DNA from: an archaeon
GTDB taxonomy: Archaea; Asgardarchaeota; Thorarchaeia; Thorarchaeales; Thorarchaeaceae
DNA: 12,926 bases
Assembly (NCBI GenBank): GCA_024276825.1
Contig: JAJRWI010000022.1
Coordinates: 1 to 12,926 of the forward strand
Direction: 5' to 3'
Made by a program: the position numbers and the translations under genes. Within the stretch, counting starts at the first letter, position 1. Each line of letters opens with the position of its first letter. The notes beneath the pieces are model-generated. The model saw only the letters and a program-made list of their open reading frames with translations. It ran no database searches and had not been told where the DNA came from. Shown in pieces: positions 2,592 to 12,926 of this stretch.

Positions 2592-4687
2592 TCCTTATTC
2601 ATACTGATATATCGGGCTAATGCAACCAAACCACTTCCATCGAAGTATACCCTGGCCCCATTAGTGCTCTCTGCTACTGGATAACTCTCAAGACCCCACC
2701 CAAGACTTCTATGAGTGTCGTAATCAACAATCACATACATTCTATCAATGAAAAGACTGTTCAGTTCATCTACTCCTTCTTCATTGAGTGCAAGACCTAT
2801 TGGTGCACCAAGAAATTCGTCCTCATTAATTCCAACGAGGGGCCTGAACTGTCGCTCTTTGGGAAGATCAAACGAACAACTCATTTTAACATAACGCGAT
2901 TTAGTATTCATGTATTGGTATACATCCATTACACAGACCTTTCTTCCAGCGGAGTAGTGTATTCGGTACTCATCAATCAATGAGTTCATTGTATCTTTCG
3001 CAGTAGTATCGGTAATATTCTTTTGAAGCGCATAAAATGGGCGAAGTGCATCTTTTGGATCAGTTCCACGAATCTTGAATTTGGCAGCTCGACGAAGTAT
3101 TCTTGTAATCGGTGCAAAGTAGGCAGGGAAAAAGCCCTTCCGTTTGGCAGAATAATCGAGTACAAGTGCTTGTGGTTCTGAATTTCTAAGAGTTATGAAT
3201 TGTCCAGCAGCCTTTCGAATGAGTTCTTTCCATTCATCAATATCACTCAGATCATTTGCATCACCAAAAACTTTTGCAAAATATTTGTTTATTGATTCAG
3301 CACTCGCATGTGAGCTTGCTGCTGGTGTTGCTTCGATTAGTCTAATCAACTCATTGATCATTAATTGAGTTTCTAACTTTGCGATGGATGAGTCTAAATA
3401 CCATAACCCTGGGTCCTGCTCTCCATAAGCTGTCCTAATTAGCCCATTGAACTCGTCCCTTGAATTTATGGAATCAACATACTTCTTGAAATAATTGAAG
3501 ACATAGACCGGTGCAAACAGTATCGCTTGTCCCTCTCTATGACGCCCAACTCTACCTAGACGTTGTAGAGCTGAGGATGCATTCCATGCCTCAAACAATA
3601 GATGGCTTGTGTCAAAATCAATGCCAACTTCTATAGAACTTGTACCAACGAGAACTAATGCACCCGACCGATTACGACGCAAGGGTTGTGGAATGAGGCC
3701 ATGACTCTCTTTGATCTCAGATTCGTCAAAATCACCCATGAGCATCTCGGTCAATGCTCTTGCACTAATAACAGAATTGAGGATAACACAGGCTGGAATA
3801 TAGTCGTCATTAGGATTGTTTGCACGTAGCTCCCCTAGCTCCTCCCTCAGAGATACGAGGTGGTCTTTCATTTGAAGTAGATCTGCATCATCTTGTGGAC
3901 GAATCTCTATCTTGACATTATGAACTACAGTCATTCCTTGATCTTCAGACATGCATTGAATTGGATTTGGCCGTTTCATGTCACTAGCATGGACAATTCT
4001 CTTGAGATACTCCTGAATTCCCTTATGTGGCGTTGCTGTCATTAACAGGATTTGGTCGAACAGGTTAATGTATCTGGCAAGGGCAATATCGAAATATAAT
4101 GAAGATAGCTCGCGTTTCTCATATGAGTGAAACTCGTCAATAACCAGAGTCCTGTAATTACTCAGCGCCGCAAGAATCTCTGCTGCCCGTTTCCCATACC
4201 TCCTCTTACCCCCGTATCGCATTCGTATCATTAGGTGGAGTGTGTCAGGATTTGTAAGAACAAACTTCGTTCGCCCATCTACTCGTGGATATAACGCCCT
4301 CCTCAGAGCCGATGATTTTGAACTCAGCTCTTTCTCTTTAATCAGCCTAAGAAGATCTGCAGCGTGTACTGTAACAACTTCAGGCTCTTCTAATCCTGCC
4401 ACTTTACATATCTTTTTGATGCTCCTGACTTGATTCTCAATCAATTCGTTGGTCGGATAAACAAACAGTGCGGTTCTTGCTGCCCCGTCTAATGCAGCAA
4501 GAGTGGCTACCGCGGTCTTTCCCATGCCTGTTCCAGCGTACACTTCTAAAAGACAGGACTCACTCTTCTTAATCTCGTCCAAAGCTTGTGCTTGGTATTG
4601 GTAGAGATCAAGATTTCCAATTATGTGTCCTGATTGTCCGAGTCTAACAGGCGGGATGTTATAATTGACCTGGTCATCATCACTCAT
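2588..4687 (-). CDS. cas3: Type I-D Cas3' SF2 helicase (no HD domain)
   Basis: Q-motif YQYQAQAL, Walker A AGTGMGKT, YPTNELIENQ, LTNPD, DEFH, MTATP, ILNSV, GTSSIEVGIDF, QRLGRVGRH. The helicase starts almost at the N-terminus, leaving no room for an HD domain, as expected for I-D. Confidence 0.93.
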   Translation of the reverse strand: MSDDDQVNYNIPPVRLGQSGHIIGNLDLYQYQAQALDEIKKSESCLLEVYAGTGMGKTAVATLAALDGAARTALFVYPTNELIENQVRSIKKICKVAGLEEPEVVTVHAADLLRLIKEKELSSKSSALRRALYPRVDGRTKFVLTNPDTLHLMIRMRYGGKRRYGKRAAEILAALSNYRTLVIDEFHSYEKRELSSLYFDIALARYINLFDQILLMTATPHKGIQEYLKRIVHASDMKRPNPIQCMSEDQGMTVVHNVKIEIRPQDDADLLQMKDHLVSLREELGELRANNPNDDYIPACVILNSVISARALTEMLMGDFDESEIKESHGLIPQPLRRNRSGALVLVGTSSIEVGIDFDTSHLLFEAWNASSALQRLGRVGRHREGQAILFAPVYVFNYFKKYVDSINSRDEFNGLIRTAYGEQDPGLWYLDSSIAKLETQLMINELIRLIEATPAASSHASAESINKYFAKVFGDANDLSDIDEWKELIRKAAGQFITLRNSEPQALVLDYSAKRKGFFPAYFAPITRILRRAAKFKIRGTDPKDALRPFYALQKNITDTTAKDTMNSLIDEYRIHYSAGRKVCVMDVYQYMNTKSRYVKMSCSFDLPKERQFRPLVGINEDEFLGAPIGLALNEEGVDELNSLFIDRMYVIVDYDTHRSLGWGLESYPVAESTNGARVYFDGSGLVALARYISMNKE

Positions 4688-5384
4688 TCAGGTTCCCTCG
4701 CAGATGCTTGGGCATTGGAACAAAGAGTTCAGTTCCATCATCTTCTAAAACATAGTATGGTGCTTTCACTGTCATCCTTCTTGCAATGGGCGATGGAAAC
4801 ATCAATACAATATCTGCAGACTCAATGATGTCACTGGGGGATAGATCTAACACATTGAAAAAGAAGTTCACATCAATCAAGTCTTCTGGGTCATCAATTT
4901 TCCCCACCAGCTTCAGTCTGGTCGCTTTTACTTGGGCTATGCATGACTTTTTACCAATTCGAATATATGGGGGCATTCTCTCGCCAGTGGAAAAGACCAA
5001 GAACTCAAACTTAGTAGAATAGGGTGTCACCTTACGATTACGTCCCAATGAGGGGATATTAAAACTGGATTGTGTCAAATTAGTTCTGGAACAGACCGAG
5101 TTATACGTATGCGTCACGAATTTCGGGTCTGTCAGTGGTCTTGCTGGTGTGGCATAGTTCTCAAACTTGTAAAGTTCCTCATATCTTGGACTGGTTCCTA
5201 GGAAGCCTGTGTTAAACTGCTTTGCCAAGGCATAGGTCAGGGCATAATTATGAATCACTGGCTGCATTTGTGTGAATGTGTTGAACTCATACGACACGAA
5301 GAATAGGAAGTCCTCGGGTATGAGTTCACATCTGTACACTGCCTTGATCAAGCCTATCACCTGGTCTTTCTGGTCATTTGCCAT
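4680..5384 (-). CDS. cas5: Type I-D Cas5 (Csc1/Cas5d)
   Basis: YRCEL...DFLFFVSYE, IHNYALTYAL, YATPARP, PPYIRIGKK match the Csc1 pattern. The ORF-track start (5516) overlaps cas7 by 143 nt and is rejected. Real start is ATG 5384, or TTG 5351 (preceded by AGGTGA at 5362-5357). Confidence 0.9.
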   Translation of the reverse strand: MANDQKDQVIGLIKAVYRCELIPEDFLFFVSYEFNTFTQMQPVIHNYALTYALAKQFNTGFLGTSPRYEELYKFENYATPARPLTDPKFVTHTYNSVCSRTNLTQSSFNIPSLGRNRKVTPYSTKFEFLVFSTGERMPPYIRIGKKSCIAQVKATRLKLVGKIDDPEDLIDVNFFFNVLDLSPSDIIESADIVLMFPSPIARRMTVKAPYYVLEDDGTELFVPMPKHLRGNLNE

Positions 5385-6321
5385 TGAGGATTTTTTCCCT
5401 GAATGATGCTGCATCAGTGTACATTTTCTCAATCCACTTCTTGGTTGGCTTCGCCTTTCGCAACTGCTGCTCAAGAGCAATGACTTCATCCTTGGAAAGG
5501 ACTTTGTTGTTCCCATCCCTAATCATTGCGAGTATTCCATTATGAGTTGCCTCGAGGATATTGTCGTAAGTAAGAATTGGATTCTCTTTTTCTTCAACTA
5601 GTTCTTCATAGATGTCCATAGTTAGCCTGAGAGCTGAGAATTGCTCTGAGTCAGAGAACACAAGGCTGAGAATCTTGTTCTCTATGACCCCCATCCCACG
5701 TGTTTCTGCACCGTATCTAGTCGTATTGAGCATAGAATACAGATAGAACTTTAGCTCATCCAATGTTGGTGCCAATAGGGTCACTACTGAGATGAAATGG
5801 GTGTCTGGCTTGACCAGCTCTCGCTCACCTAATGCCTGCCCTGTTTTTGTGGTCTTTTCATTGACTGCATTGAATGTGATGCTCTCTACAACATCTTCAA
5901 ATGGCAATATCGAGAATGCGGTCTGATATAGAAGCCGACTCTTTATTGAGATCTCTCCAGCACCCTTTTCTGCTTTAATCCCGCCATTTAATGCACACAC
6001 TGGACATTTCAAGCATAATTCATCCTTCAAATAGCATTCATCTGCTTCAGGCATGATGTCACGAATGATCTGTGATTCATGACGTCGCTCAACAGCCTTT
6101 TGTTTTGAGGCAAGAATCAAAGCACGATCGATTATCTTATTGGCTTTCTTTGAGGCAGGTGTAGCAACACTGTTTGTATACTTGTCAGCCTCCGTCCTGA
6201 ATGCCGCATAATCGAGTGTGCGTCTCAAGATGGCAATGCTCACATATTTTGCTGGTGCAAGTGGTGTTGGTTTGTCGATAAACCACTCACTCTCCTGATC
6301 AAGTAGTTCTATTTTCATCAC
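5374..6321 (-). CDS. cas7: Type I-D Cas7 (Csc2) backbone subunit
   Basis: YVSIAILRRT, SKQKAVERR, Cys cluster CYLKDELCLKCPVCALNG, KSRLLYQTAFS, TRYGAET. SD GGAGGT at 6333-6328; start GTG 6321 or ATG 6318. Confidence 0.93.
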   Translation of the reverse strand: MMKIELLDQESEWFIDKPTPLAPAKYVSIAILRRTLDYAAFRTEADKYTNSVATPASKKANKIIDRALILASKQKAVERRHESQIIRDIMPEADECYLKDELCLKCPVCALNGGIKAEKGAGEISIKSRLLYQTAFSILPFEDVVESITFNAVNEKTTKTGQALGERELVKPDTHFISVVTLLAPTLDELKFYLYSMLNTTRYGAETRGMGVIENKILSLVFSDSEQFSALRLTMDIYEELVEEKENPILTYDNILEATHNGILAMIRDGNNKVLSKDEVIALEQQLRKAKPTKKWIEKMYTDAASFREKILNGK

Positions 6322-6705
6322 CTATTTACCTCCTTTTTTTGATTGAAATTTCTCATTGATTGAGATTAACCTCTTTAGATATACTGCGTAGCGTAAGTCA
6401 TCAAGGATCTTTTTACGACTCCTTGCACTCTCTTTCTCAAGTCTTTCAGCCAAATCTTTACAGACCTTGAGAATTGGTTCTGCCGCTTCAGAATACAGAT
6501 AATCTCCTTTGTTCAATTGTTGTAGCTGTCGATGAACTCGTCCAGCAATAGACTCTATCCTCTCAGAATCGAGAGTTGGAGTTTTTCTAAATTCTACATA
6601 TAGAGCATTTATCGGTCCTAGTATGGAATGCATGGATGATCCATACTTCTCAGGTCGATAATATTGCTCTAGGATATCCACTATTTCATCCACTAATGTT
6701 CCCAT
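6322..6705 (-). CDS. cas11d: Probable internally translated small subunit Cas11d (in frame within cas10d)
   Basis: AAGGAAGTGGAT-ATG-ATG inside cas10d: SD-like GGAAGTG at 6718-6712, ATGs at 6708 and 6705. The product would be the 127-128 aa helical C-terminus. Internal translation of Cas11d is established for I-D systems. Confidence 0.75.
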   Translation of the reverse strand: MGTLVDEIVDILEQYYRPEKYGSSMHSILGPINALYVEFRKTPTLDSERIESIAGRVHRQLQQLNKGDYLYSEAAEPILKVCKDLAERLEKESARSRKKILDDLRYAVYLKRLISINEKFQSKKGGK

Positions 6706-8982
6706 CATATCCACTTCCTTTAATCCTGTTAGAACCATTAATTCCTGCTCACTTAAGCGGGGATATTCACGTTTGAGAAGTATTCTTTGGGCTAACTGTC
6801 CTGGGTGAGTCGTCAATGCTTGCTGAATACCATTGCGTTTTGAGAGATCGGCAAACAATCGGGCACGCATTGCGAGTGCAATTTTCAGTCCGATTCGTGC
6901 TGCATCGTTAAAATCAACAACCCCTTTTCTAAGTCCTAAAGTCCTGAGAAGACTTCCATTTCCAGGAAAGATCACTGCACCATCTAATTCATTGACATCC
7001 ACCATGTCCAACCCTTCAATGATCTTTACCCTCACTTCGAGAATCAGACTCAATGTCAGTGCTTGCAATAGAATCATTGCTAGGCCTTCAGAATTAGCAA
7101 GACCGGTTCTGTCAGGGCTTGTACTCATAATCACATAATTGCCCATGATGTTGTCTGAAATTTTGAAAGGTTCGCGATCGGCTACACATAACTTTTCCAA
7201 TCGCTCCTTGATCTCAGCGGCGTGGTTTACTACCTCTCCACTCAAGAACATCTTTACAGACTTTTCAGGACTTCGATCCAGCCTTCTGAGATATATCGCC
7301 TTTTTTCTTAGACTCTCTGCTCTCTCCGCCGATATAGACACCTGAGGTACCAGAACATATCCATAGCCAATGGCACCTCTAAGAATTCCTTCAAGCAAAC
7401 ATAATTTACAGATGTTGATATTATCAAGGCGCGTAGTCCCAATTCCGACATTTACGAACTTCTTAGTTCCAGAACCCACGCCCGCAGCAATTGCCTTTGT
7501 TCCAAGTGCGGCAGATCCACATATGGGACACCTCACGTTGCCATCAATTGAACCCATCGCACTCTGCTTCGCACTCAAATATGTCTTATGAAATTGATCG
7601 GCCACTGCGTGAATTGGGCTAGGGCCCGCAGAATTTGACAGCTTGGCATTGATTAAGACTGGATGTCCCACATCGGTGATTAATTGTATTAGATAATCAT
7701 CAATCTCAATTGATTTGAGCGGGTCAAATTCATCACTTGAAAAATAGCTCATCATCTCTTTGACAAGTTGAAGATACCCCTTCTTTATTGATGTGAGCAC
7801 AGAATCTAATGGCATTGTCAGAAGGTCTCGTGAGGCGTGTCCTCCCAATTGGAGTGCTTTGGAAACCTTGTCAATCTCTCCATTCCAAAAGTCATAACTC
7901 ATTGGAAGCCCTATCTTGCCAAGATCCAGTCCGAGAATCTTTAACTCAAGAGTTGACAGCTCATCAGTTGCCTTTTGCTTCTCAGACTCGTCAATATCAA
8001 GCAGATTGATCTTCCTACGCAGCGCATCTTGAAGAGTTGAAATGAATCTCAGAAATATGGCACGTTTTTGTTCATCCGTTTTTTGTGGAAGAGAAGCTGT
8101 TCTTGATTCAGCATACTCTATGAAAACAGGCAGTGAGTCGAGTGCCACCAGACCCTCGTTTGCAATCATGGCCCGATTTATCTGCATTGCAGTAGAACTC
8201 TCAAGAAATGTCTTTTCTAAGAGAGCATTTTTTAGGAGAGTTCCAATTCGTTCTATTACTTGCTCCTTCAGACTGTTGATGTCAGGTCGCTCTCTTCCAA
8301 GAAATAGACAACCATTAGGAAATACAGCAAGCGTCTTGAGTCCATTTTCATTGTATGTTTCTTGCAATGCTTTATGCAGGATGTAAGTCAAGACTCCACG
8401 AATTTTTAGCAAAGAGTAGTACTCAAAATATATACTGAACTGCTCAAGAATTGGTTGGAAGTCTTCTGCTTTTGTTGCACGATACGCATCTTCGGGTGTA
8501 TTGGCAGAAGCAATCCAGTCTGCAAGTTTAGTGATGTCTCCCAGAAATATCAACGAGGAGGTCTCCCCTCCCCTACGTACCTGTTTTTCAGCCCTCAATG
8601 AAGATACTGTTTCTCCAATCCCTCGATGCGTGGCAATTACTACTGCAAACACATCGTTTATCAAAGAATCATCTGAAATCTCGCAAAGGCTCAAGAATTC
8701 ACCAATTTGGTCGTGTGTAGGGAGATGGGGTGGGGTCTTGCCTTTTTGGAGGCCTTCCTGAAACTCAGGAAACTCCTTACCCAGATCATGAAGAAATGCT
8801 GCTAGCATGAGGACCTTTCTCTGTGTGCGATCAAGGTCAAATGTATCCGCGATAGTCAATGCAATATCCATTACTGCTTGCGAATGGGCCAAAATTGTCT
8901 GACTTGGATGACTCTTCGCAAGCAGTTTGTGCCAGTTTCTGGTTCTTGCTGCTTTGACAAGGTCCTTCTCAGTGATCTTCAT
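6322..8982 (-). CDS. cas10d: Type I-D large subunit Cas10d (Csc3) with N-terminal HD nuclease
   Basis: 886 aa; Cas3-like HD domain (LAKS..QTILAHS, AFLHDLGK, IATH, KLADWIAS); Zn finger CPICG...CKLC; helical C-terminus with YYRP...SMHSILGP; lies directly upstream of csc2 and csc1. Confidence 0.9.
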   Translation of the reverse strand: MKITEKDLVKAARTRNWHKLLAKSHPSQTILAHSQAVMDIALTIADTFDLDRTQRKVLMLAAFLHDLGKEFPEFQEGLQKGKTPPHLPTHDQIGEFLSLCEISDDSLINDVFAVVIATHRGIGETVSSLRAEKQVRRGGETSSLIFLGDITKLADWIASANTPEDAYRATKAEDFQPILEQFSIYFEYYSLLKIRGVLTYILHKALQETYNENGLKTLAVFPNGCLFLGRERPDINSLKEQVIERIGTLLKNALLEKTFLESSTAMQINRAMIANEGLVALDSLPVFIEYAESRTASLPQKTDEQKRAIFLRFISTLQDALRRKINLLDIDESEKQKATDELSTLELKILGLDLGKIGLPMSYDFWNGEIDKVSKALQLGGHASRDLLTMPLDSVLTSIKKGYLQLVKEMMSYFSSDEFDPLKSIEIDDYLIQLITDVGHPVLINAKLSNSAGPSPIHAVADQFHKTYLSAKQSAMGSIDGNVRCPICGSAALGTKAIAAGVGSGTKKFVNVGIGTTRLDNINICKLCLLEGILRGAIGYGYVLVPQVSISAERAESLRKKAIYLRRLDRSPEKSVKMFLSGEVVNHAAEIKERLEKLCVADREPFKISDNIMGNYVIMSTSPDRTGLANSEGLAMILLQALTLSLILEVRVKIIEGLDMVDVNELDGAVIFPGNGSLLRTLGLRKGVVDFNDAARIGLKIALAMRARLFADLSKRNGIQQALTTHPGQLAQRILLKREYPRLSEQELMVLTGLKEVDMMGTLVDEIVDILEQYYRPEKYGSSMHSILGPINALYVEFRKTPTLDSERIESIAGRVHRQLQQLNKGDYLYSEAAEPILKVCKDLAERLEKESARSRKKILDDLRYAVYLKRLISINEKFQSKKGGK

Positions 8983-9005: not shown

Positions 9006-9024
9006 ATATATAAGCCTTACTTAT
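9006..9024 (-). promoter_or_regulatory. Archaeal TATA box (and BRE) of the cas10d operon, probably a leaderless transcript
   Basis: Minus strand reads TAAGTAAGGC-TTATATAT; first T at 9013 is 31 nt upstream of the cas10d ATG; no SD precedes that ATG. Confidence 0.65.
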
Positions 9025-9081
9025 TGGTTAATTCTCAATATCAAAGTTTACAAATAGGGGGCCAATACGTCAACCTTAGAC

Positions 9082-10527
9082 TTATTCATCAATTTCCCTA
9101 ATGTCTTTATTATCAAACTCCTTTTTAATTTGAATACAATATTTAATGACTTGGTGATTATTGATATTTATCCGAAAGGTCATTTTTGCACTTGTCTTTC
9201 TTGAGGCCAATGTAGTGATCAATTGAAGTTGCTTTAGACTGTCAAGTAATTTTCCAGGAACTGGATATATGTCGGTCTTCTCATGAGGTTGGGTATACCT
9301 GTCTGGAAATCGCCCCTCAAGTATTTGTGCACCAATATGAATCTGGTTTGCAGTCCTAACGCCCATTCTGTCTTCGGCAATTCTAAAGCGCTGCGGGTCC
9401 TCTTCCATCAAGAGTTGATCATGTAAGAATGCAAGAACAAGATAGTCAAATACATTCAAGATGGGCGAGTCGAGTTTGGGCATACCGGGAAGTTGGAAAA
9501 GTCTATTTATTGTTGGCACCAATTTGCTCTTTAATGGCTCAGTGCATCCTGCCAGAAAAATCACATCTTTTGATTGAAATTGTTGAAGCCAGTCTGTAAA
9601 TTCTTTCTTCAAATCCAGCTCAATTTTGGCAAGACCAATCGTATCTGCAATCTTCTCAAAAGCCCTTCTTTGATAACTCCAAGGCAGGATGTGCGCGGTT
9701 AATTTCTTGGAATATACATAGTGGTGTGATGAGTGACTGATGAACAAGCATTCAATCAACTCACGAATGGCTCTTCTATGTGAGATATCACTATCACGGA
9801 CCGTGTGCCACAACACAGGAATTACAACCCTTTGAGCAAATGCAAAGAACACAGCATTACATAATCTTTGCATCAATAATTTGGAAGTCTGTGAGCCAAC
9901 CTCTATCGTCACATGATTATTGTTTTGAATGGAAACAATAGAAAAACTGGAATGGCTTGAGTCTTGTTTTCCGGACTTGATTAAATCGATTTGAAAGCAA
10001 TCGGAGAAGCTTGGCCTAATTTGATCTTTACACCCAAATAGAGCTTTAGAGATAATATGTTTCGTTTCCTTGAGTCCATTGAATAATTGATCTCTCTGAG
10101 ATTTGACGAGTTCAGCAGGAATCTTGGCTTGAGTTGAGGTTGTAATTCTTCTTCTGACCTCTGCATATAGTGATGGATATACGAGTATCTCCTGAACTAC
10201 ATGAAATTCCGCAGAGTCAAAAGTCTCATGATAGGCATGCTTTGCAATCAAAGGAACGGGCATTCGATGTTTCATTCTATGATCATTTGAAATTCGAGCT
10301 TGATGCACAGACATCCCAAGCATCGGACCCTTCAAAGTCCATTTTAGCAGACCATGACCATTAATGAAAGTTTTAGTTTCGAGATTTATTCGTCTTGCCA
10401 AGCACTCCTTAAACTTCGACCATAATTCATCCCGATTGCCAAGGAATAACAAGTCTTGTCGAAGCTCTCTATTAAAGAGAACTACTTCAGGAAGGGGCAT
10501 AAAAGATGAGATTTGGACCCGATGCAT
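9082..10527 (-). CDS. Hypothetical protein (481 aa), possible C-terminal winged helix
   Basis: Long ORF; SD GAGGTG at 10541-10536; TAATG stop/start overlap with the upstream gene. The C-terminal pattern LNVFDYLVLAFL...TANQI...LLDSLKQLQLI...FRIN resembles a wHTH (weak). No family recognised. Confidence 0.8.
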   Translation of the reverse strand: MHRVQISSFMPLPEVVLFNRELRQDLLFLGNRDELWSKFKECLARRINLETKTFINGHGLLKWTLKGPMLGMSVHQARISNDHRMKHRMPVPLIAKHAYHETFDSAEFHVVQEILVYPSLYAEVRRRITTSTQAKIPAELVKSQRDQLFNGLKETKHIISKALFGCKDQIRPSFSDCFQIDLIKSGKQDSSHSSFSIVSIQNNNHVTIEVGSQTSKLLMQRLCNAVFFAFAQRVVIPVLWHTVRDSDISHRRAIRELIECLFISHSSHHYVYSKKLTAHILPWSYQRRAFEKIADTIGLAKIELDLKKEFTDWLQQFQSKDVIFLAGCTEPLKSKLVPTINRLFQLPGMPKLDSPILNVFDYLVLAFLHDQLLMEEDPQRFRIAEDRMGVRTANQIHIGAQILEGRFPDRYTQPHEKTDIYPVPGKLLDSLKQLQLITTLASRKTSAKMTFRININNHQVIKYCIQIKKEFDNKDIREIDE

Positions 10528-12047
10528 TATGTTCCCACCTCAAAGTCGACATCACTAATCCACCAGTCCTTATAACCATCTAGCCATCTGTGAACGGGAA
10601 GTTTCCATTTGATAAAATGCATATCTCCCAAATATGTTATCCACCGTTTTCTTCCTCGCAGGAAATCATTTAGATCCTCTACTATGTCTCTCACATGTTC
10701 TTCAGGAACTCTGAGCACTAATGATGTATATCCCTCGACTGTTCGTTCAGCATACACCTCTGGTAAACATGACACTGCATTACATAATTGCAAATGCAAT
10801 TTATGAGGGATTTTTGTCATGACTACTATTACTCCAGGTGCAAAAAGGGGGGTTGGGATCACTCGATTAATAATCACATTATGTTCTCGAAGTCTATTGT
10901 GCCTTTCTACCACAAAATTGTAGTCTTTCTTGAGAATGTTTCTAAGCTCACGGAGTGTTAACGGGCCTTTGCTTGTCAAATGACTTATGATCTGAATATC
11001 TGTTTCATCAAGAAGAGTTCTTTCCAAATCGGATTCCAATGATTGTTGGGACATATCATCTATTTCTCTAGTAAACCCTGAACGCATCATTGGGCTGAAA
11101 ATTCCTGTTTGGACCTCCCATGTGACACCATTAAACATGTTGTAATTGAAGTGCATCCAATTCATGGGTTCTATTCGGTTGAAAACATTGACAAATCTCA
11201 CATCGTCAAGCTCACTCAATTTGCGGACCCAATTCCTTGCCTCAGATTGCGACCTCCATGAATCAGGTACCACAAAATGGGCAATAGCAAAGTGGGATCC
11301 CATTCTTGATTCAAAGAGACTATACAACCAAGGATTGTTTGCAGAGAATGCAGGAGGAAGTTCTGCATCAAGACTTGTGAGTTCCACTAGCGCTATTAGA
11401 ACTTGCAGGCCCAAAGCTTTGAATGAGAATCTTACTCTCTCCCACAGTATCACTCTCTCCTTAAGACTGTTAATCACTCTTGAAACATAGCCTTTTGTCA
11501 TGCCCAGTTGCCTTGCAAGCTTAGTTGGTGAGAGAGTCTGTTGTTCAAGGGCTAATCGAAATACATCGAGTTCTCGTGCTGTGAGTCTGGGGGTGAGATC
11601 AGCTCGTATTCTGAAAAACGCTTTCAGAAAATCTTCAACAACTGCAGTTTCGGATTGATTCAACAACTCTCTGTAAATTCTTATGAGGTGCTCGAATCTA
11701 TCGGGTGCTTGCAGAAATAGATAGTACGCCCCCGGTGGGTCATATATCCTGCTTGTCAGATCACCTCTTATCTTTGTGGTGGACGCCCACAACTGCTCCC
11801 AATTCTTCAACTCATCCCAACTCAACCCAAGTCTATCTCTCAATAACTGTTCCACTCTGAAGCATACCAAGTCCCATCCAATAGTGCCAGGTGCCGCAAA
11901 TAATGACTCTTGCATTTCGGCCGCTTCGTCTGATATCTGATCCAGCTCACTAGACTTCTCATTCCAGATGTCCTTCAATAGCTCTATCAGCTGGCCAATT
12001 CTCGTTACTGCCTTTTTTGCCACGCGATACAAATTGGAATTCTCCAA
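10527..12047 (-). CDS. Tandem winged-HTH (Lrp/AsnC-like) transcription regulator with an extra N-terminal domain
   Basis: Two wHTH units (LTARELDVFRLALEQQTLSPTKLARQLGMTKGYVSRVINSL...FKALGL; LDETDIQIISHLTSKGPLTLRELRNILKKDYNFVVERHNRLREHNVI), each followed by an alpha/beta segment compatible with an Lrp RAM domain. Start uncertain: TTG 12047 or GTG 12023. Confidence 0.75.
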   Translation of the reverse strand: MENSNLYRVAKKAVTRIGQLIELLKDIWNEKSSELDQISDEAAEMQESLFAAPGTIGWDLVCFRVEQLLRDRLGLSWDELKNWEQLWASTTKIRGDLTSRIYDPPGAYYLFLQAPDRFEHLIRIYRELLNQSETAVVEDFLKAFFRIRADLTPRLTARELDVFRLALEQQTLSPTKLARQLGMTKGYVSRVINSLKERVILWERVRFSFKALGLQVLIALVELTSLDAELPPAFSANNPWLYSLFESRMGSHFAIAHFVVPDSWRSQSEARNWVRKLSELDDVRFVNVFNRIEPMNWMHFNYNMFNGVTWEVQTGIFSPMMRSGFTREIDDMSQQSLESDLERTLLDETDIQIISHLTSKGPLTLRELRNILKKDYNFVVERHNRLREHNVIINRVIPTPLFAPGVIVVMTKIPHKLHLQLCNAVSCLPEVYAERTVEGYTSLVLRVPEEHVRDIVEDLNDFLRGRKRWITYLGDMHFIKWKLPVHRWLDGYKDWWISDVDFEVGT

Positions 12048-12066
12048 GTTTTAAGGGTGTTTTTTC
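12048..12066 (-). promoter_or_regulatory. Candidate TATA box for the regulator gene
   Basis: Minus strand reads AAAAAACACC-CTTAAAAC; first T at 12054 is 31 nt upstream of GTG 12023, the same spacing as at cas10d. Confidence 0.4.
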
Positions 12067-12067
12067 G

Positions 12068-12107
12068 ACCTATTATCATTGTTTCATAACTATTGGAACC
12101 TATTATC
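12068..12107. repeat. 10-bp direct repeat ACCTATTATC x2
   Basis: Exact copies at 12068-12077 and 12098-12107 (30-bp period), flanking the imperfect palindrome GTTTCA-TAACTAT-TGGAAC. Confidence 0.7.
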
Positions 12108-12389
12108 TCTGATGTTTTCCGCCCAATTACGTCAGGGAGTTTCACGTCAGATGTCCTGGCGGAGGTGATAAGATGCATAATCCGCCAGGAGACCCATCTC
12201 CTGTTCCACCATGGTGCTAATTGGAACTCCTGAATGATATCCAACAAGCCAAAAGCTTGTTTCAGTATAATTGTTGGGATGCCCTTTGAACCAAGCTCCA
12301 GATCAAGGAGTTTCATACGGCCTAGACCCTGAATCAATCAGGGTCTTACCCTCAGACAACATGACGAGGGCATCCATCTCTTTTTTCTT
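12081..12389 (+). ncRNA. Putative structured RNA of unknown family
   Basis: Perfect stems 12154-63/12181-90 (10 bp), 12203-08/12222-27, 12243-49/12255-61, 12277-85/12367-75 (9 bp), 12324-32/12338-46 (9 bp), plus 12293-99/12307-13 with one G-U. G-U pairs favour the + strand. Ends in a T-tract at 12381-12389. Boundaries are approximate. Confidence 0.5.
12173..12220 (+). CDS. Putative 15-aa proline-rich mini-peptide MHNPPGDPSPVPPWC
   Basis: Perfect archaeal SD GGAGGTGAT at 12161-12169, ATG 12173, TAA 12218-12220. Confidence 0.45.
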   Translation: MHNPPGDPSPVPPWC

Positions 12390-12877
12390 ACACATATTCC
12401 TATTAACATATCGATTGAATCAACCATTAATGATATTGTTCTGATTTTTATGTGCTATTTAATTCCAAATGCGATCCATAATTTCCCACTTCTATCTCAC
12501 CAAGATTCGTGCCTCCGAGTCCCAATAGTATTCTTGACCTATTGCATACTAATGGAAAAACATTAGTCACATCATAAGCCCCCTTCTTTAAAATAATGCT
12601 ATTTTATTCTCCAATATACTCCAAATAGGGTATCTTTATGTGCATTTTTTAGACAGCAGTTTATTAGATTCAATTTATTGTTTTTCGCAGTTCCCCATCT
12701 CGTTAATTGCAAAAATGATGCGATTTCATTACTATAATTGGCAAAATAGCACTCTAGTCGCAGATGTCCTACCGTGGTCTATTATTAATTGCGCATCACA
12801 AATGTTGAACTCCGCCAAATTTTTGAACATACCCCGCCATAGTGGCAAAAACTAAATACTTTTAGGAAAATGACAGG
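12390..12877 (+). promoter_or_regulatory. AT-rich CRISPR leader region (5' limit uncertain)
   Basis: Non-coding and AT-rich, directly 5' of the repeat; BRE/TATA-like AAAAACTAAATA at 12847-12858. Confidence 0.6.
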
Positions 12878-12926
12878 GTTGAAGATCAAAAGCCTCAGCT
12901 AAGAGGATTGAAAGTTCATTGACATC
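12878..12926 (+). CRISPR. First repeat (12878-12914) and start of the first spacer of a CRISPR array running off the window
   Basis: 37-nt GTTGAAGATCAAAAGCCTCAGCTAAGAGGATTGAAAG: GTT start, CCTC/GAGG hairpin, canonical 8-nt ATTGAAAG handle right after the stem, preceded by an AT-rich leader next to a cas operon. Only one copy is visible. Confidence 0.8.

Follow-up and report, generated by a model that had tools for sequence, protein, structure and literature searches.

A conserved double-Lrp, winged-helix, and micropeptide cassette of Asgard archaea that probably switches immunity genes under peptide control

A cassette between cas10d and the CRISPR array

What are two coupled genes and a divergent micro-gene doing between the effector genes and the array of a type I-D CRISPR locus? 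The window analysed here, 12,926 nucleotides, is the entire contig JAJRWI010000022.1 of a Thorarchaeota genome (assembly GCA_024276825.1), and it carries a type I-D operon comprising cas10d, cas7/csc2, cas5/csc1, cas3', and cas6, plus cas1/2/4. The first gene of the operon presumed to be the target of the cassette is cas10d (6322..8982, minus strand; TIGR03174 and an HD domain), while the first CRISPR repeat lies at 12878..12914 on the plus strand of an array that carries on into contig C22 with 14 further repeats. Genes A and B lie between them on the minus strand, in the same orientation as the Cascade genes, and overlap through a TAATG at 10527; divergent from them are a Shine-Dalgarno (SD) sequence (12161..12168, plus strand), a 15-codon ORF (12173..12220, plus strand), and hairpins, and the region 12100-12400 folds with z = -4.0. 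A first-pass annotation of this DNA had described both the co-oriented, coupled gene pair inside a type I-D locus and the divergent hairpin-rich element with its SD and mini-ORF, and both descriptions hold. We conclude that the cassette is conserved and probably constitutes a peptide-controlled switch for immunity genes, whose proteins would bind both DNA and peptide.

Gene A is a predicted double Lrp/AsnC protein and gene B belongs to an unnamed family

Gene A (10527..12032, minus strand) was annotated at first pass as a 506-aa gene, the length given by an ORF finder that stretches it to 12047; the gene is there, but because the database lists a 501-aa protein and relatives have an SD-like motif ahead of the corresponding codon, the start is most likely the TTG at 12032 and the product most likely 501 aa long. 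Pfam HTH_24 matches the protein in two stretches, a profile search retrieves Lrp/AsnC structures (E 7e-9), and a Foldseek search with the structure model (pLDDT 88.5) retrieves NirDL (E 8e-8) and many Lrp proteins. As modelled, gene A is a tandem Lrp/AsnC protein in which an N-terminal helical domain of ~145 aa is followed by two wHTH-RAM units, wHTH then RAM, twice per chain. HxYxR is the catalytic motif of the NirDL/AhbAB siroheme decarboxylases; the equivalent position in gene A reads E-[V/A/I/L]-Y-x-[E/Q]-R, and the His is absent.

Gene B (9082..10527, minus strand; 481 aa), which is translationally coupled to A, matched nothing in Pfam, NCBIfam, PADLOC, or PDB sequences and has 50 relatives in all among 1.84 billion representatives. 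Its structure model (pLDDT 92.5) predicts an alpha/beta and helical region (residues 1-335) followed by a winged helix (346-475) that resembles Orc/MarR-type DNA-binding domains (archaeal Orc2: Z 9.3, rmsd 3.1, 94 aligned). The large N-terminal region, which has conserved Arg residues, is uncharacterised, as is the MJ0711_N cluster that residues 1-321 may resemble in fold (PF27233; TM 0.45 by query and 0.58 by target, 262 aligned, rmsd 4.1); a CorA/RMD1-like resemblance suspected by eye was absent from the listed PDB fold matches, which the wHTH filled. Csa3/CARF profiles gave just a weak match to the HTH region of A (E 0.007), a profile search found no CARF similarity in B, no WYL profile matched A, B, or 27 B homologues, and TPR and Rgg profiles matched neither A nor B. 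The earlier statement that neither protein is recognisable as a WYL or Csa3 regulator therefore survives as regards those profiles, but A is recognisable as a tandem Lrp/AsnC protein and the C-terminus of B forms a winged helix.

The micro-gene encodes a conserved peptide

The 15-aa micro-gene product has the core P-[G/D/E]-D-P-x-P-[I/V]-P-P-[W/F], which is kept in 11/11 B-type loci of the Thor-like group, where bases departing from the majority number 8, 12, and 50 of 110 at codon positions 1, 2, and 3. The Asp is invariant, Trp or Phe follows the Pro-Pro, all four Pro codons are in use, non-proline residues and spacing are conserved, and 0-7 residues are tolerated beyond the core. Judged from this pattern of substitution, the micro-gene is a true gene whose acidic-Pro/Trp core is under codon-level selection. 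It was found at 28/28 B loci with assembled upstream DNA, including those where cas operons part A from B; seven bases of the SD are invariant across 10 loci, and an SD precedes 29/31 B-type peptides. A search of 185,579 genomes with the SD-plus-core pattern matched 7 places, six of which are the A/B/peptide cassette, and the peptide pattern had no match in viral contigs. Across 49 peptides an acid-Pro occurs in 47 and a terminal Trp or Phe in 43, but a terminal Pro-Pro in just 27. The window peptide has no signal sequence. A relative at locus L148, beside A, a Csa3-like gene, and cas6, joins a signal-peptide-like N-terminus to the same type of tail, and at 38 residues would probably not be long enough to engage the translocon before its release from the ribosome. 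A 645-aa gene adjoining the peptide on contig C63 was considered as a B relative and rejected as unrelated to B.

Candidate operators and RNA structure

Two candidate operators flank the coupled genes. An imperfect palindrome, AAYT-N9-ARTT (12123..12144, plus strand), separates the start of A from that of the divergent peptide gene, has conserved columns across 10 loci, and is the top matrix score in the genome (30.5 vs 18.9 for the next, a gap inflated by self-inclusion). An inverted repeat, GTTTAC-N17-GTAAAC (9046..9074), lies in the ~100 bp that separate B from cas10d, and a TATA-like box (9006-9014) follows ~30 bp downstream. The repeat is conserved in 7 Thor loci and L099; although it is the sole strict match in the source genome, ~0.85 strict matches are expected by chance, so the support for it is its conservation.

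The 3' tail of the peptide transcript contains a two-hairpin RNA motif (12324..12370, plus strand) followed by a T-run (12381-12389), with compensatory changes at 7/14 pairs and 96% of cells paired among 7 sequences. The motif is missing from L034, L036, and Heimdall-type loci, and covariation is confined to a Thor subset; an Rfam search of the structured RNA gave chance-level matches only, and RNA-motif patterns had no match in metagenome or viral contigs. Of the two kinds of signal proposed at first pass, RNA and peptide, only the peptide is universal to the module. Two further readings of the structure were rejected: sequestration of the SD as a type I toxin hallmark, since the local stem predicted in the window, in which codons 3-6 pair with the flank of the SD (12154..12190, plus strand), does not recur family-wide, and SD pairing across the family is 0.74 vs 0.70 in 93 control genes; and an origin of the hairpins at ~12290-12370 as degenerate CRISPR repeats, which score no better than shuffles.

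Distribution and exchange of partners

At each of the 13 evaluable Thorarchaeota type I-D loci, an A-family gene occurs together with a peptide and with another winged-helix gene, which is B in 4 and a Csa3/CARF-type gene in 9. The cassette occurs at I-B and III-A loci as well, and B is tied to I-D, I-B, or III-A loci in 10/12 genera that have it. At sister loci the A-family gene is accompanied by a Csa3/CARF3-wHTH gene (PADLOC E 5e-31), an N-terminal CARF plus wHTH architecture that neither A nor B has, and by related divergent peptides. Because such peptides face both these A genes and, on contig C42 of the source genome, a double-Lrp pair that is more distantly related, the peptide tracks A, not B. 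Many A paralogues have no neighbouring peptide, and 12/26 B genomes, nearly all from two genera, have no adjacent cas gene. A quick tree of A separates B-partnered from Csa3-partnered members with support 49, and we claim no order of events from it.

The first-pass annotation would have been undermined by homologues scattered singly among housekeeping genes beside an unconserved element; instead, homologues turn up together and the micro-ORF is conserved across Asgard families. Its description of a CRISPR-linked regulatory module of a peptide and two DNA-binding-type proteins is borne out by context, except that an exclusive link to CRISPR is contradicted by the B genomes without cas genes nearby.

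A peptide-tuned switch and its rivals

We put at about an even chance the proposal that the peptide is a ligand tuning the control of cas promoters by A and B in a three-part transcriptional switch. Specifically, i) A would be a single-chain double-Lrp regulator; ii) the 15-aa peptide, translated from a terminated transcript of its own, would be a ligand or antagonist of A; iii) B would be a second sensor-plus-winged-helix regulator, in the slot held by a Csa3/CARF-type protein at sister loci; iv) A and/or B may bind the palindrome between the divergent promoters, giving autoregulation and peptide feedback; and v) A and/or B may bind the inverted repeat before cas10d, so that cas expression would be set by peptide level. 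The input might be cell density, should the peptide be exported, or the capacity for translation, as the peptide has Asp/Pro motifs of the eIF5A-dependent kind. Arguing for the switch are the constant presence of the peptide at B loci and of all three components at Thor I-D loci, the tracking of A by the peptide, the precedent of micro-peptides that work unprocessed and are encoded divergently from their receptor (PMC10518010), the greater steadiness of acid-Pro and Trp/Phe than of Pro-Pro, the export-tagged L148 peptide, and the inverted repeat; arguing against it are the peptide-free A paralogues, the cas-free B genomes, a peptide packed with stalling motifs, and the binding preference of Lrp RAM domains, which bind single amino acids and are not known to bind 15-mers. 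Since nearly half of the B genomes lack adjacent cas genes, the targets cannot be cas alone. We advance only tentatively, as falling somewhat short of an even chance, the wider claim that an archaeal peptide-signal system controls CRISPR-Cas through a double-Lrp receptor unrelated to RRNPP, with B or Csa3 as exchangeable second sensors and with peptides that may be leaderless or export-tagged, and has spread across Asgard.

The mini-ORF might instead act in trans by stalling ribosomes, either as a proline-codon toxin like CreT or as a sink for aIF5A, restrained by A and B rather than by CreA, in which case loss of the locus would arrest growth. We consider this, the main rival, rather unlikely. 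An SD, a mini-ORF with Pro-Pro close to its stop codon, and a hairpin further on, all within a cas locus, do reproduce the anatomy of CreT (bioRxiv 10.64898/2026.06.02.729485), PPW stalls ribosomes in the AZIN1 uORF (PMC9082881), DDP and PDP require eIF5A (PMC7104864), Pro-Pro falls within the last five residues of 22/31 B-type peptides, and the cassette is retained in G312, G315, and G316 despite reduction of the cas promoter to a half-site and TATA. However, the conservation of non-proline residues and spacing, the variable extension beyond the core, and the existence of an export-tagged form do not suit a stalling device, and of the 18 sister peptides 15 lack an SD, 4 lack Pro-Pro altogether, and just 5 have it at the end. 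Nor was a CreA-like repeat or promoter-matching spacer found in 5 loci, where non-array repeat-like scores equalled those of shuffled repeats and promoter 12-mer matches were few and scattered, although a very degenerate guide could escape such a search. The first-pass suggestion of a toxin-antitoxin-like module finds no direct support.

Three other explanations fare worse. That the peptide is a cis-acting leader, attenuating transcription that would otherwise run on into the CRISPR leader or the following gene, and that A and B are independent regulators nearby, is suggested by the window and several Thor loci, where hairpins and a T-run separate the peptide from an array towards which it is oriented, and by alternative pairing partners for the 3' half of hairpin 2 in some loci; but the downstream gene varies (array, zinc-ribbon gene, convergent Csa1, others), the RNA tail varies by clade, and in G011 and G012 the peptide sits beyond the array, in convergent orientation to cas3 or B, which makes this very unlikely. 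It is similarly improbable that the cassette is a general Asgard stress or metabolic regulator merely co-located with mobile defence islands and leaving cas genes uncontrolled: the two genera with cas-free contexts, and units of an A-family gene plus peptide adjoining GNAT and metabolic genes, fit such a role, whereas the ties of B to cas loci, the 13 Thor loci, the partner swap with Csa3, and the conserved inverted repeat at the cas10d promoter do not. Most improbable, by a little, is a RiPP-like substrate modified or processed by B, which would account for the uncharacterised, Arg-containing region of B and its invariable co-occurrence with the peptide, but not for sister modules that have the peptide without B, or for a B wHTH akin to DNA-binding domains; moreover, the genes conserved near the cassette include no transporter, protease, or known modifying enzyme.

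Comparison with known systems

In the literature searched we found no account of the A/B/peptide module, of peptide-gated Lrp proteins, or of Asgard CRISPR-Cas regulation, in agreement with the first-pass view that the module was previously undescribed; the novelty lies in the architecture and in its departures from the known families below, and the function would be as proposed above. The peptide-tuned switch can be tested with a complete set of parts: two well-modelled proteins, a synthesisable 15-mer, and two candidate operators.

Lrp/AsnC feast-famine regulators and NirDL/AhbAB share the tandem wHTH-RAM fold of A, which adds an N-terminal helical domain and, relative to the decarboxylases, lacks their motif. 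Csa3 proteins (CARF-wHTH) are dedicated sensor-plus-wHTH cas regulators at the cas promoters of Sulfolobales (PMC10013973); a Csa3-like gene fills the slot of B at sister loci, but B has no CARF similarity, and a review (PMC10013973) mentions no peptide or double-Lrp partner for Csa3. In the P. aeruginosa I-F CreTA system, CreT is a 15-nt ORF in which two Pro codons before the stop suffice, silenced by the CreA guide (bioRxiv 10.64898/2026.06.02.729485). The cassette likewise has an SD, a Pro-Pro mini-ORF, and a hairpin within a type I cas locus, but its ORF runs to 15 codons and conserves Asp, Ile/Val, and Trp, rather than showing a toxic pair right before the stop amid irrelevant codons, and two protein regulators are always present in place of a detectable CreA. 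The PPW of the AZIN1 uORF is a polyamine/eIF5A sensor acting in cis on the downstream main ORF (PMC9082881); the cassette shares a small ORF with a C-terminal PPW, but its downstream ORF is unconserved and many homologues lack PPW. Were the micro-gene a stalling device after all, it would correspond to CreT in an archaeal form repressed by proteins, and would give prokaryotes a parallel to the PPW uORFs that sense eIF5A. In RRNPP/Rgg signalling the peptide leaves the cell, is taken up again, and is bound by the regulator. The leaderless communication peptides of RopB/Rgg are unprocessed micro-peptides encoded divergently from their receptor (PMC10518010), and the cassette resembles them in having a leaderless ultrasmall ORF divergent from a cytoplasmic DNA-binding-type protein with presumed target genes on both sides; their receptor, however, is an RRNPP HTH-TPR protein of Firmicutes and their peptides have 8-10 hydrophobic residues, whereas the candidate receptor here has a tandem Lrp/AsnC fold and a second, alpha/beta plus wHTH partner, and the peptides span 11-24 acidic, Pro-rich residues.

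Organization of the locus

Contig C11, which the window spans entirely, belongs to a 2.9-Mb genome that the names of homologues assign to Thorarchaeota. Its plus strand encodes cas1-cas2-cas4 and its minus strand cas10d-cas7-cas5-cas3'-cas6; it also has a single CRISPR repeat (12878-12914), 14 further repeats lying on contig C22. The interval that separates cas10d from the leader is occupied by gene B (9082-10527) and gene A (10527-12032), together with a micro-gene that runs divergently (12173-12220). The listed cas5 ORF (4680-5516) runs into cas7; translation probably begins near 5351 instead, for a product of about 223 aa, the length at locus L001. ARAGORN reports only one tRNA-Pro in the whole genome, with a CGG anticodon, probably because other tRNA-Pro genes are unassembled or split by introns.

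Genes A and B encode DNA-binding-type proteins

Gene A is present and co-oriented with Cascade as the first-pass annotation had it, but instead of 506 aa its product is probably 501 aa, starting at TTG 12032. The same annotation recognized neither a WYL-domain nor a Csa3/CARF-HTH regulator here; gene A is of the Lrp/AsnC type: Pfam finds two HTH stretches, a 37-sequence profile matches Lrp/AsnC structures (E 7e-9), and in the model (pLDDT 88.5) a helical domain at the N terminus precedes two wHTH-RAM units, with NirDL and Lrp proteins as structural matches. The HxYxR motif of the siroheme decarboxylases is absent from gene A. Elsewhere in the genome (L006:1-5128, on G000:C4) three A-like genes, one of them 34% identical to A, cluster around an arsenite-transporter-like gene, and neither B nor the peptide was seen there; the cluster is possibly a relic duplicate.

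Gene B matches no family and no PDB sequence, and a search of 1.84 billion representatives yielded just 50 relatives. At the C terminus of its model (pLDDT 92.5) is a winged helix of the kind seen in Orc/Cdc6 and MarR (Z 9.3, rmsd 3.1, 94 residues), and the sole resemblance of residues 1-321 is to the uncharacterised MJ0711_N cluster. The coupling of A and B claimed earlier holds, the genes overlapping or abutting in 19 of 19 junctions checked. At two cas-free loci of the Asgard family f8 (L094:1-1632 and L046:25-1872) the gene after B starts, by eye, like an AAA/OLD-type ATPase, and is a possible defence gene.

The micro-gene and flanking sites

On the evidence of sequence conservation, the micro-gene is real. 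All 11 B-type loci of the Thorarchaeota (Thor)-like group preserve the core P-[G/D/E]-D-P-x-P-[I/V]-P-P-[W/F], with 8/12/50 non-majority bases at codon positions 1/2/3; every one of the 28 B loci with assembled upstream DNA has a related peptide, families f8, f3, f11, and f12 included; and the peptide is also kept where entire cas operons sit between A and B. The divergent SD and mini-ORF first noticed in the window are borne out. The SD plus core pattern matched 7 times in 185,579 genomes (6 cassettes and 1 unrelated Alistipes site), and only 4 of the 2,877 SD-led small ORFs in the window genome are as proline-rich. Occlusion of the SD does not exceed that seen in control genes. Two near-identical short proline-rich ORFs with the same C-terminal motif lie elsewhere in the window genome, at L111:1917-1967 (G000:C63:12916-12966) and G000:C28:89189-89251, neither with an A-like neighbor; the C63 ORF comes with SD, hairpin, and T-run, and is convergent with an unknown gene of 645 aa.

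An imperfect palindrome conserved between the divergent starts (12123-12144) is a candidate operator, and an inverted repeat, GTTTAC-N17-GTAAAC (9046-9074), lies 5′ of the cas10d TATA-like box in seven Thor loci. Three genomes that have no adjacent cas operon still retain, after B, the right half of this repeat and the TATA, which suggests that the operon was lost there. Two hairpins (12324-12370) and a T-run close the peptide transcript; 7 of the 14 pairs show compensatory changes, in support of the structured RNA previously proposed, but this tail is confined to a Thor subset, other clades having different tails or none.

Distribution and linkage to CRISPR-Cas

A survey of 400 Asgard genomes located gene B in 25, and profile comparison added one more. 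A, B, and the SD-led proline-rich mini-ORF, whose co-occurrence the first-pass annotation proposed to check, are found together, in part with cas genes: B adjoins cas genes or an array in 13 of the 26 genomes (I-D in Thor, I-B and III-A in other groups), stands without either in 12 from two genera, and is unclear in one, and 10 of the 12 genera that have B show the link to CRISPR, all of these being counts rather than tests, as kin are not independent. Fifteen Thor genomes have csc2, and each of the 13 with assembled flanks carries an A-family gene, a divergent proline-rich peptide, and a second wHTH gene, which is B in 4 and of the Csa3/CARF3 type in 9; A and the peptide are therefore the constant pair, and their partner can be exchanged, B being one of at least two. 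The module was not seen in the fetched DNA of three non-Thor I-D loci, and there is no peptide next to many of the A paralogues. We conclude that this is a conserved Asgard module whose link to CRISPR-Cas is strong, not exclusive.

Several other arrangements were observed. In a second Thor I-D architecture (L120, L121, L123, L124, L126, L128-L131), a separate small subunit follows cas10d, and a Csa1/Cas4a gene follows cas6, succeeded in order by peptide, Csa3-like gene, and A-family gene. L112 and L086 (G016, a closed genome) form a nested locus, in the order I-B operon, B, peptide, III-A operon, A, cas1, array. In family f8, which we infer to be Heimdallarchaeaceae because two of its genomes are closed and rich in CRISPR, as are those in PMC8813620, a conserved zinc-ribbon gene of 311-314 aa with no family match above cut-off lies immediately 5′ of cas1 (L041:14328-15272, L086:10423-11358, L095:3169-4113); at cas-free f8 loci (L040, L042-L045, L047, L049, L081, L082) the cassette is flanked by Cys-rich zinc-ribbon genes of ~100 aa.

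Possible mechanisms

As far as sequence can tell, the cassette has the anatomy of an autoregulated switch, in which two DNA-binding-type proteins and a small divergent product would act through candidate operators at both the peptide and the cas promoters; how the module works, binding and direction of control included, we infer. We put at about an even chance that the peptide acts as a ligand, and favor this reading because i) acid-Pro (47 of 49 peptides) and the terminal aromatic residue (43/49) are more constant than the terminal Pro-Pro (27/49); ii) 15 of the 18 sister peptides, from modules with no B, have no SD; iii) at L148:342-4359 a 38-aa peptide with a signal-peptide-like leader (hydrophobic stretch, A-x-A site) before the same kind of tail is encoded divergently to an A-family gene, and Csa3-like and cas6 genes come after it; iv) a second peptide-regulator cassette of the window genome (G000:C42:34226-37275) has two small ORFs, ending in D-P-x-P-[F/Y], that diverge from a more distant pair of double-Lrp genes, of 400 and 485 aa; and v) Firmicutes provide a precedent for leaderless peptides encoded divergently to the receptor (PMC10518010).

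The chief rival, which we consider clearly less probable, is that the peptide is a ribosome-stalling device like the proline-codon toxin CreT or the AZIN1 uORF, where PPW stalls ribosomes (PMC9082881); its DDP and PDP motifs are indeed of the kind that needs eIF5A (PMC7104864), but a search of five loci for CreA, the guide RNA that silences CreT, found none, so that any toxin would be protein-repressed. Ligand and stalling could also be combined: the regulator would then read aIF5A-dependent translation from the output of peptide. Cis attenuation by the peptide ORF, a RiPP role for its product, and mere co-location of the module with CRISPR loci are less likely still.

Comparison with known systems

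The module is apparently undescribed so far, no description having been found in a literature search that covered few subscription papers. Its layout recalls that of Rgg/LCP cassettes, its position that of Csa3, and the anatomy of its mini-ORF that of CreT (bioRxiv 10.64898/2026.06.02.729485), but it lacks a defining feature of each of the three.
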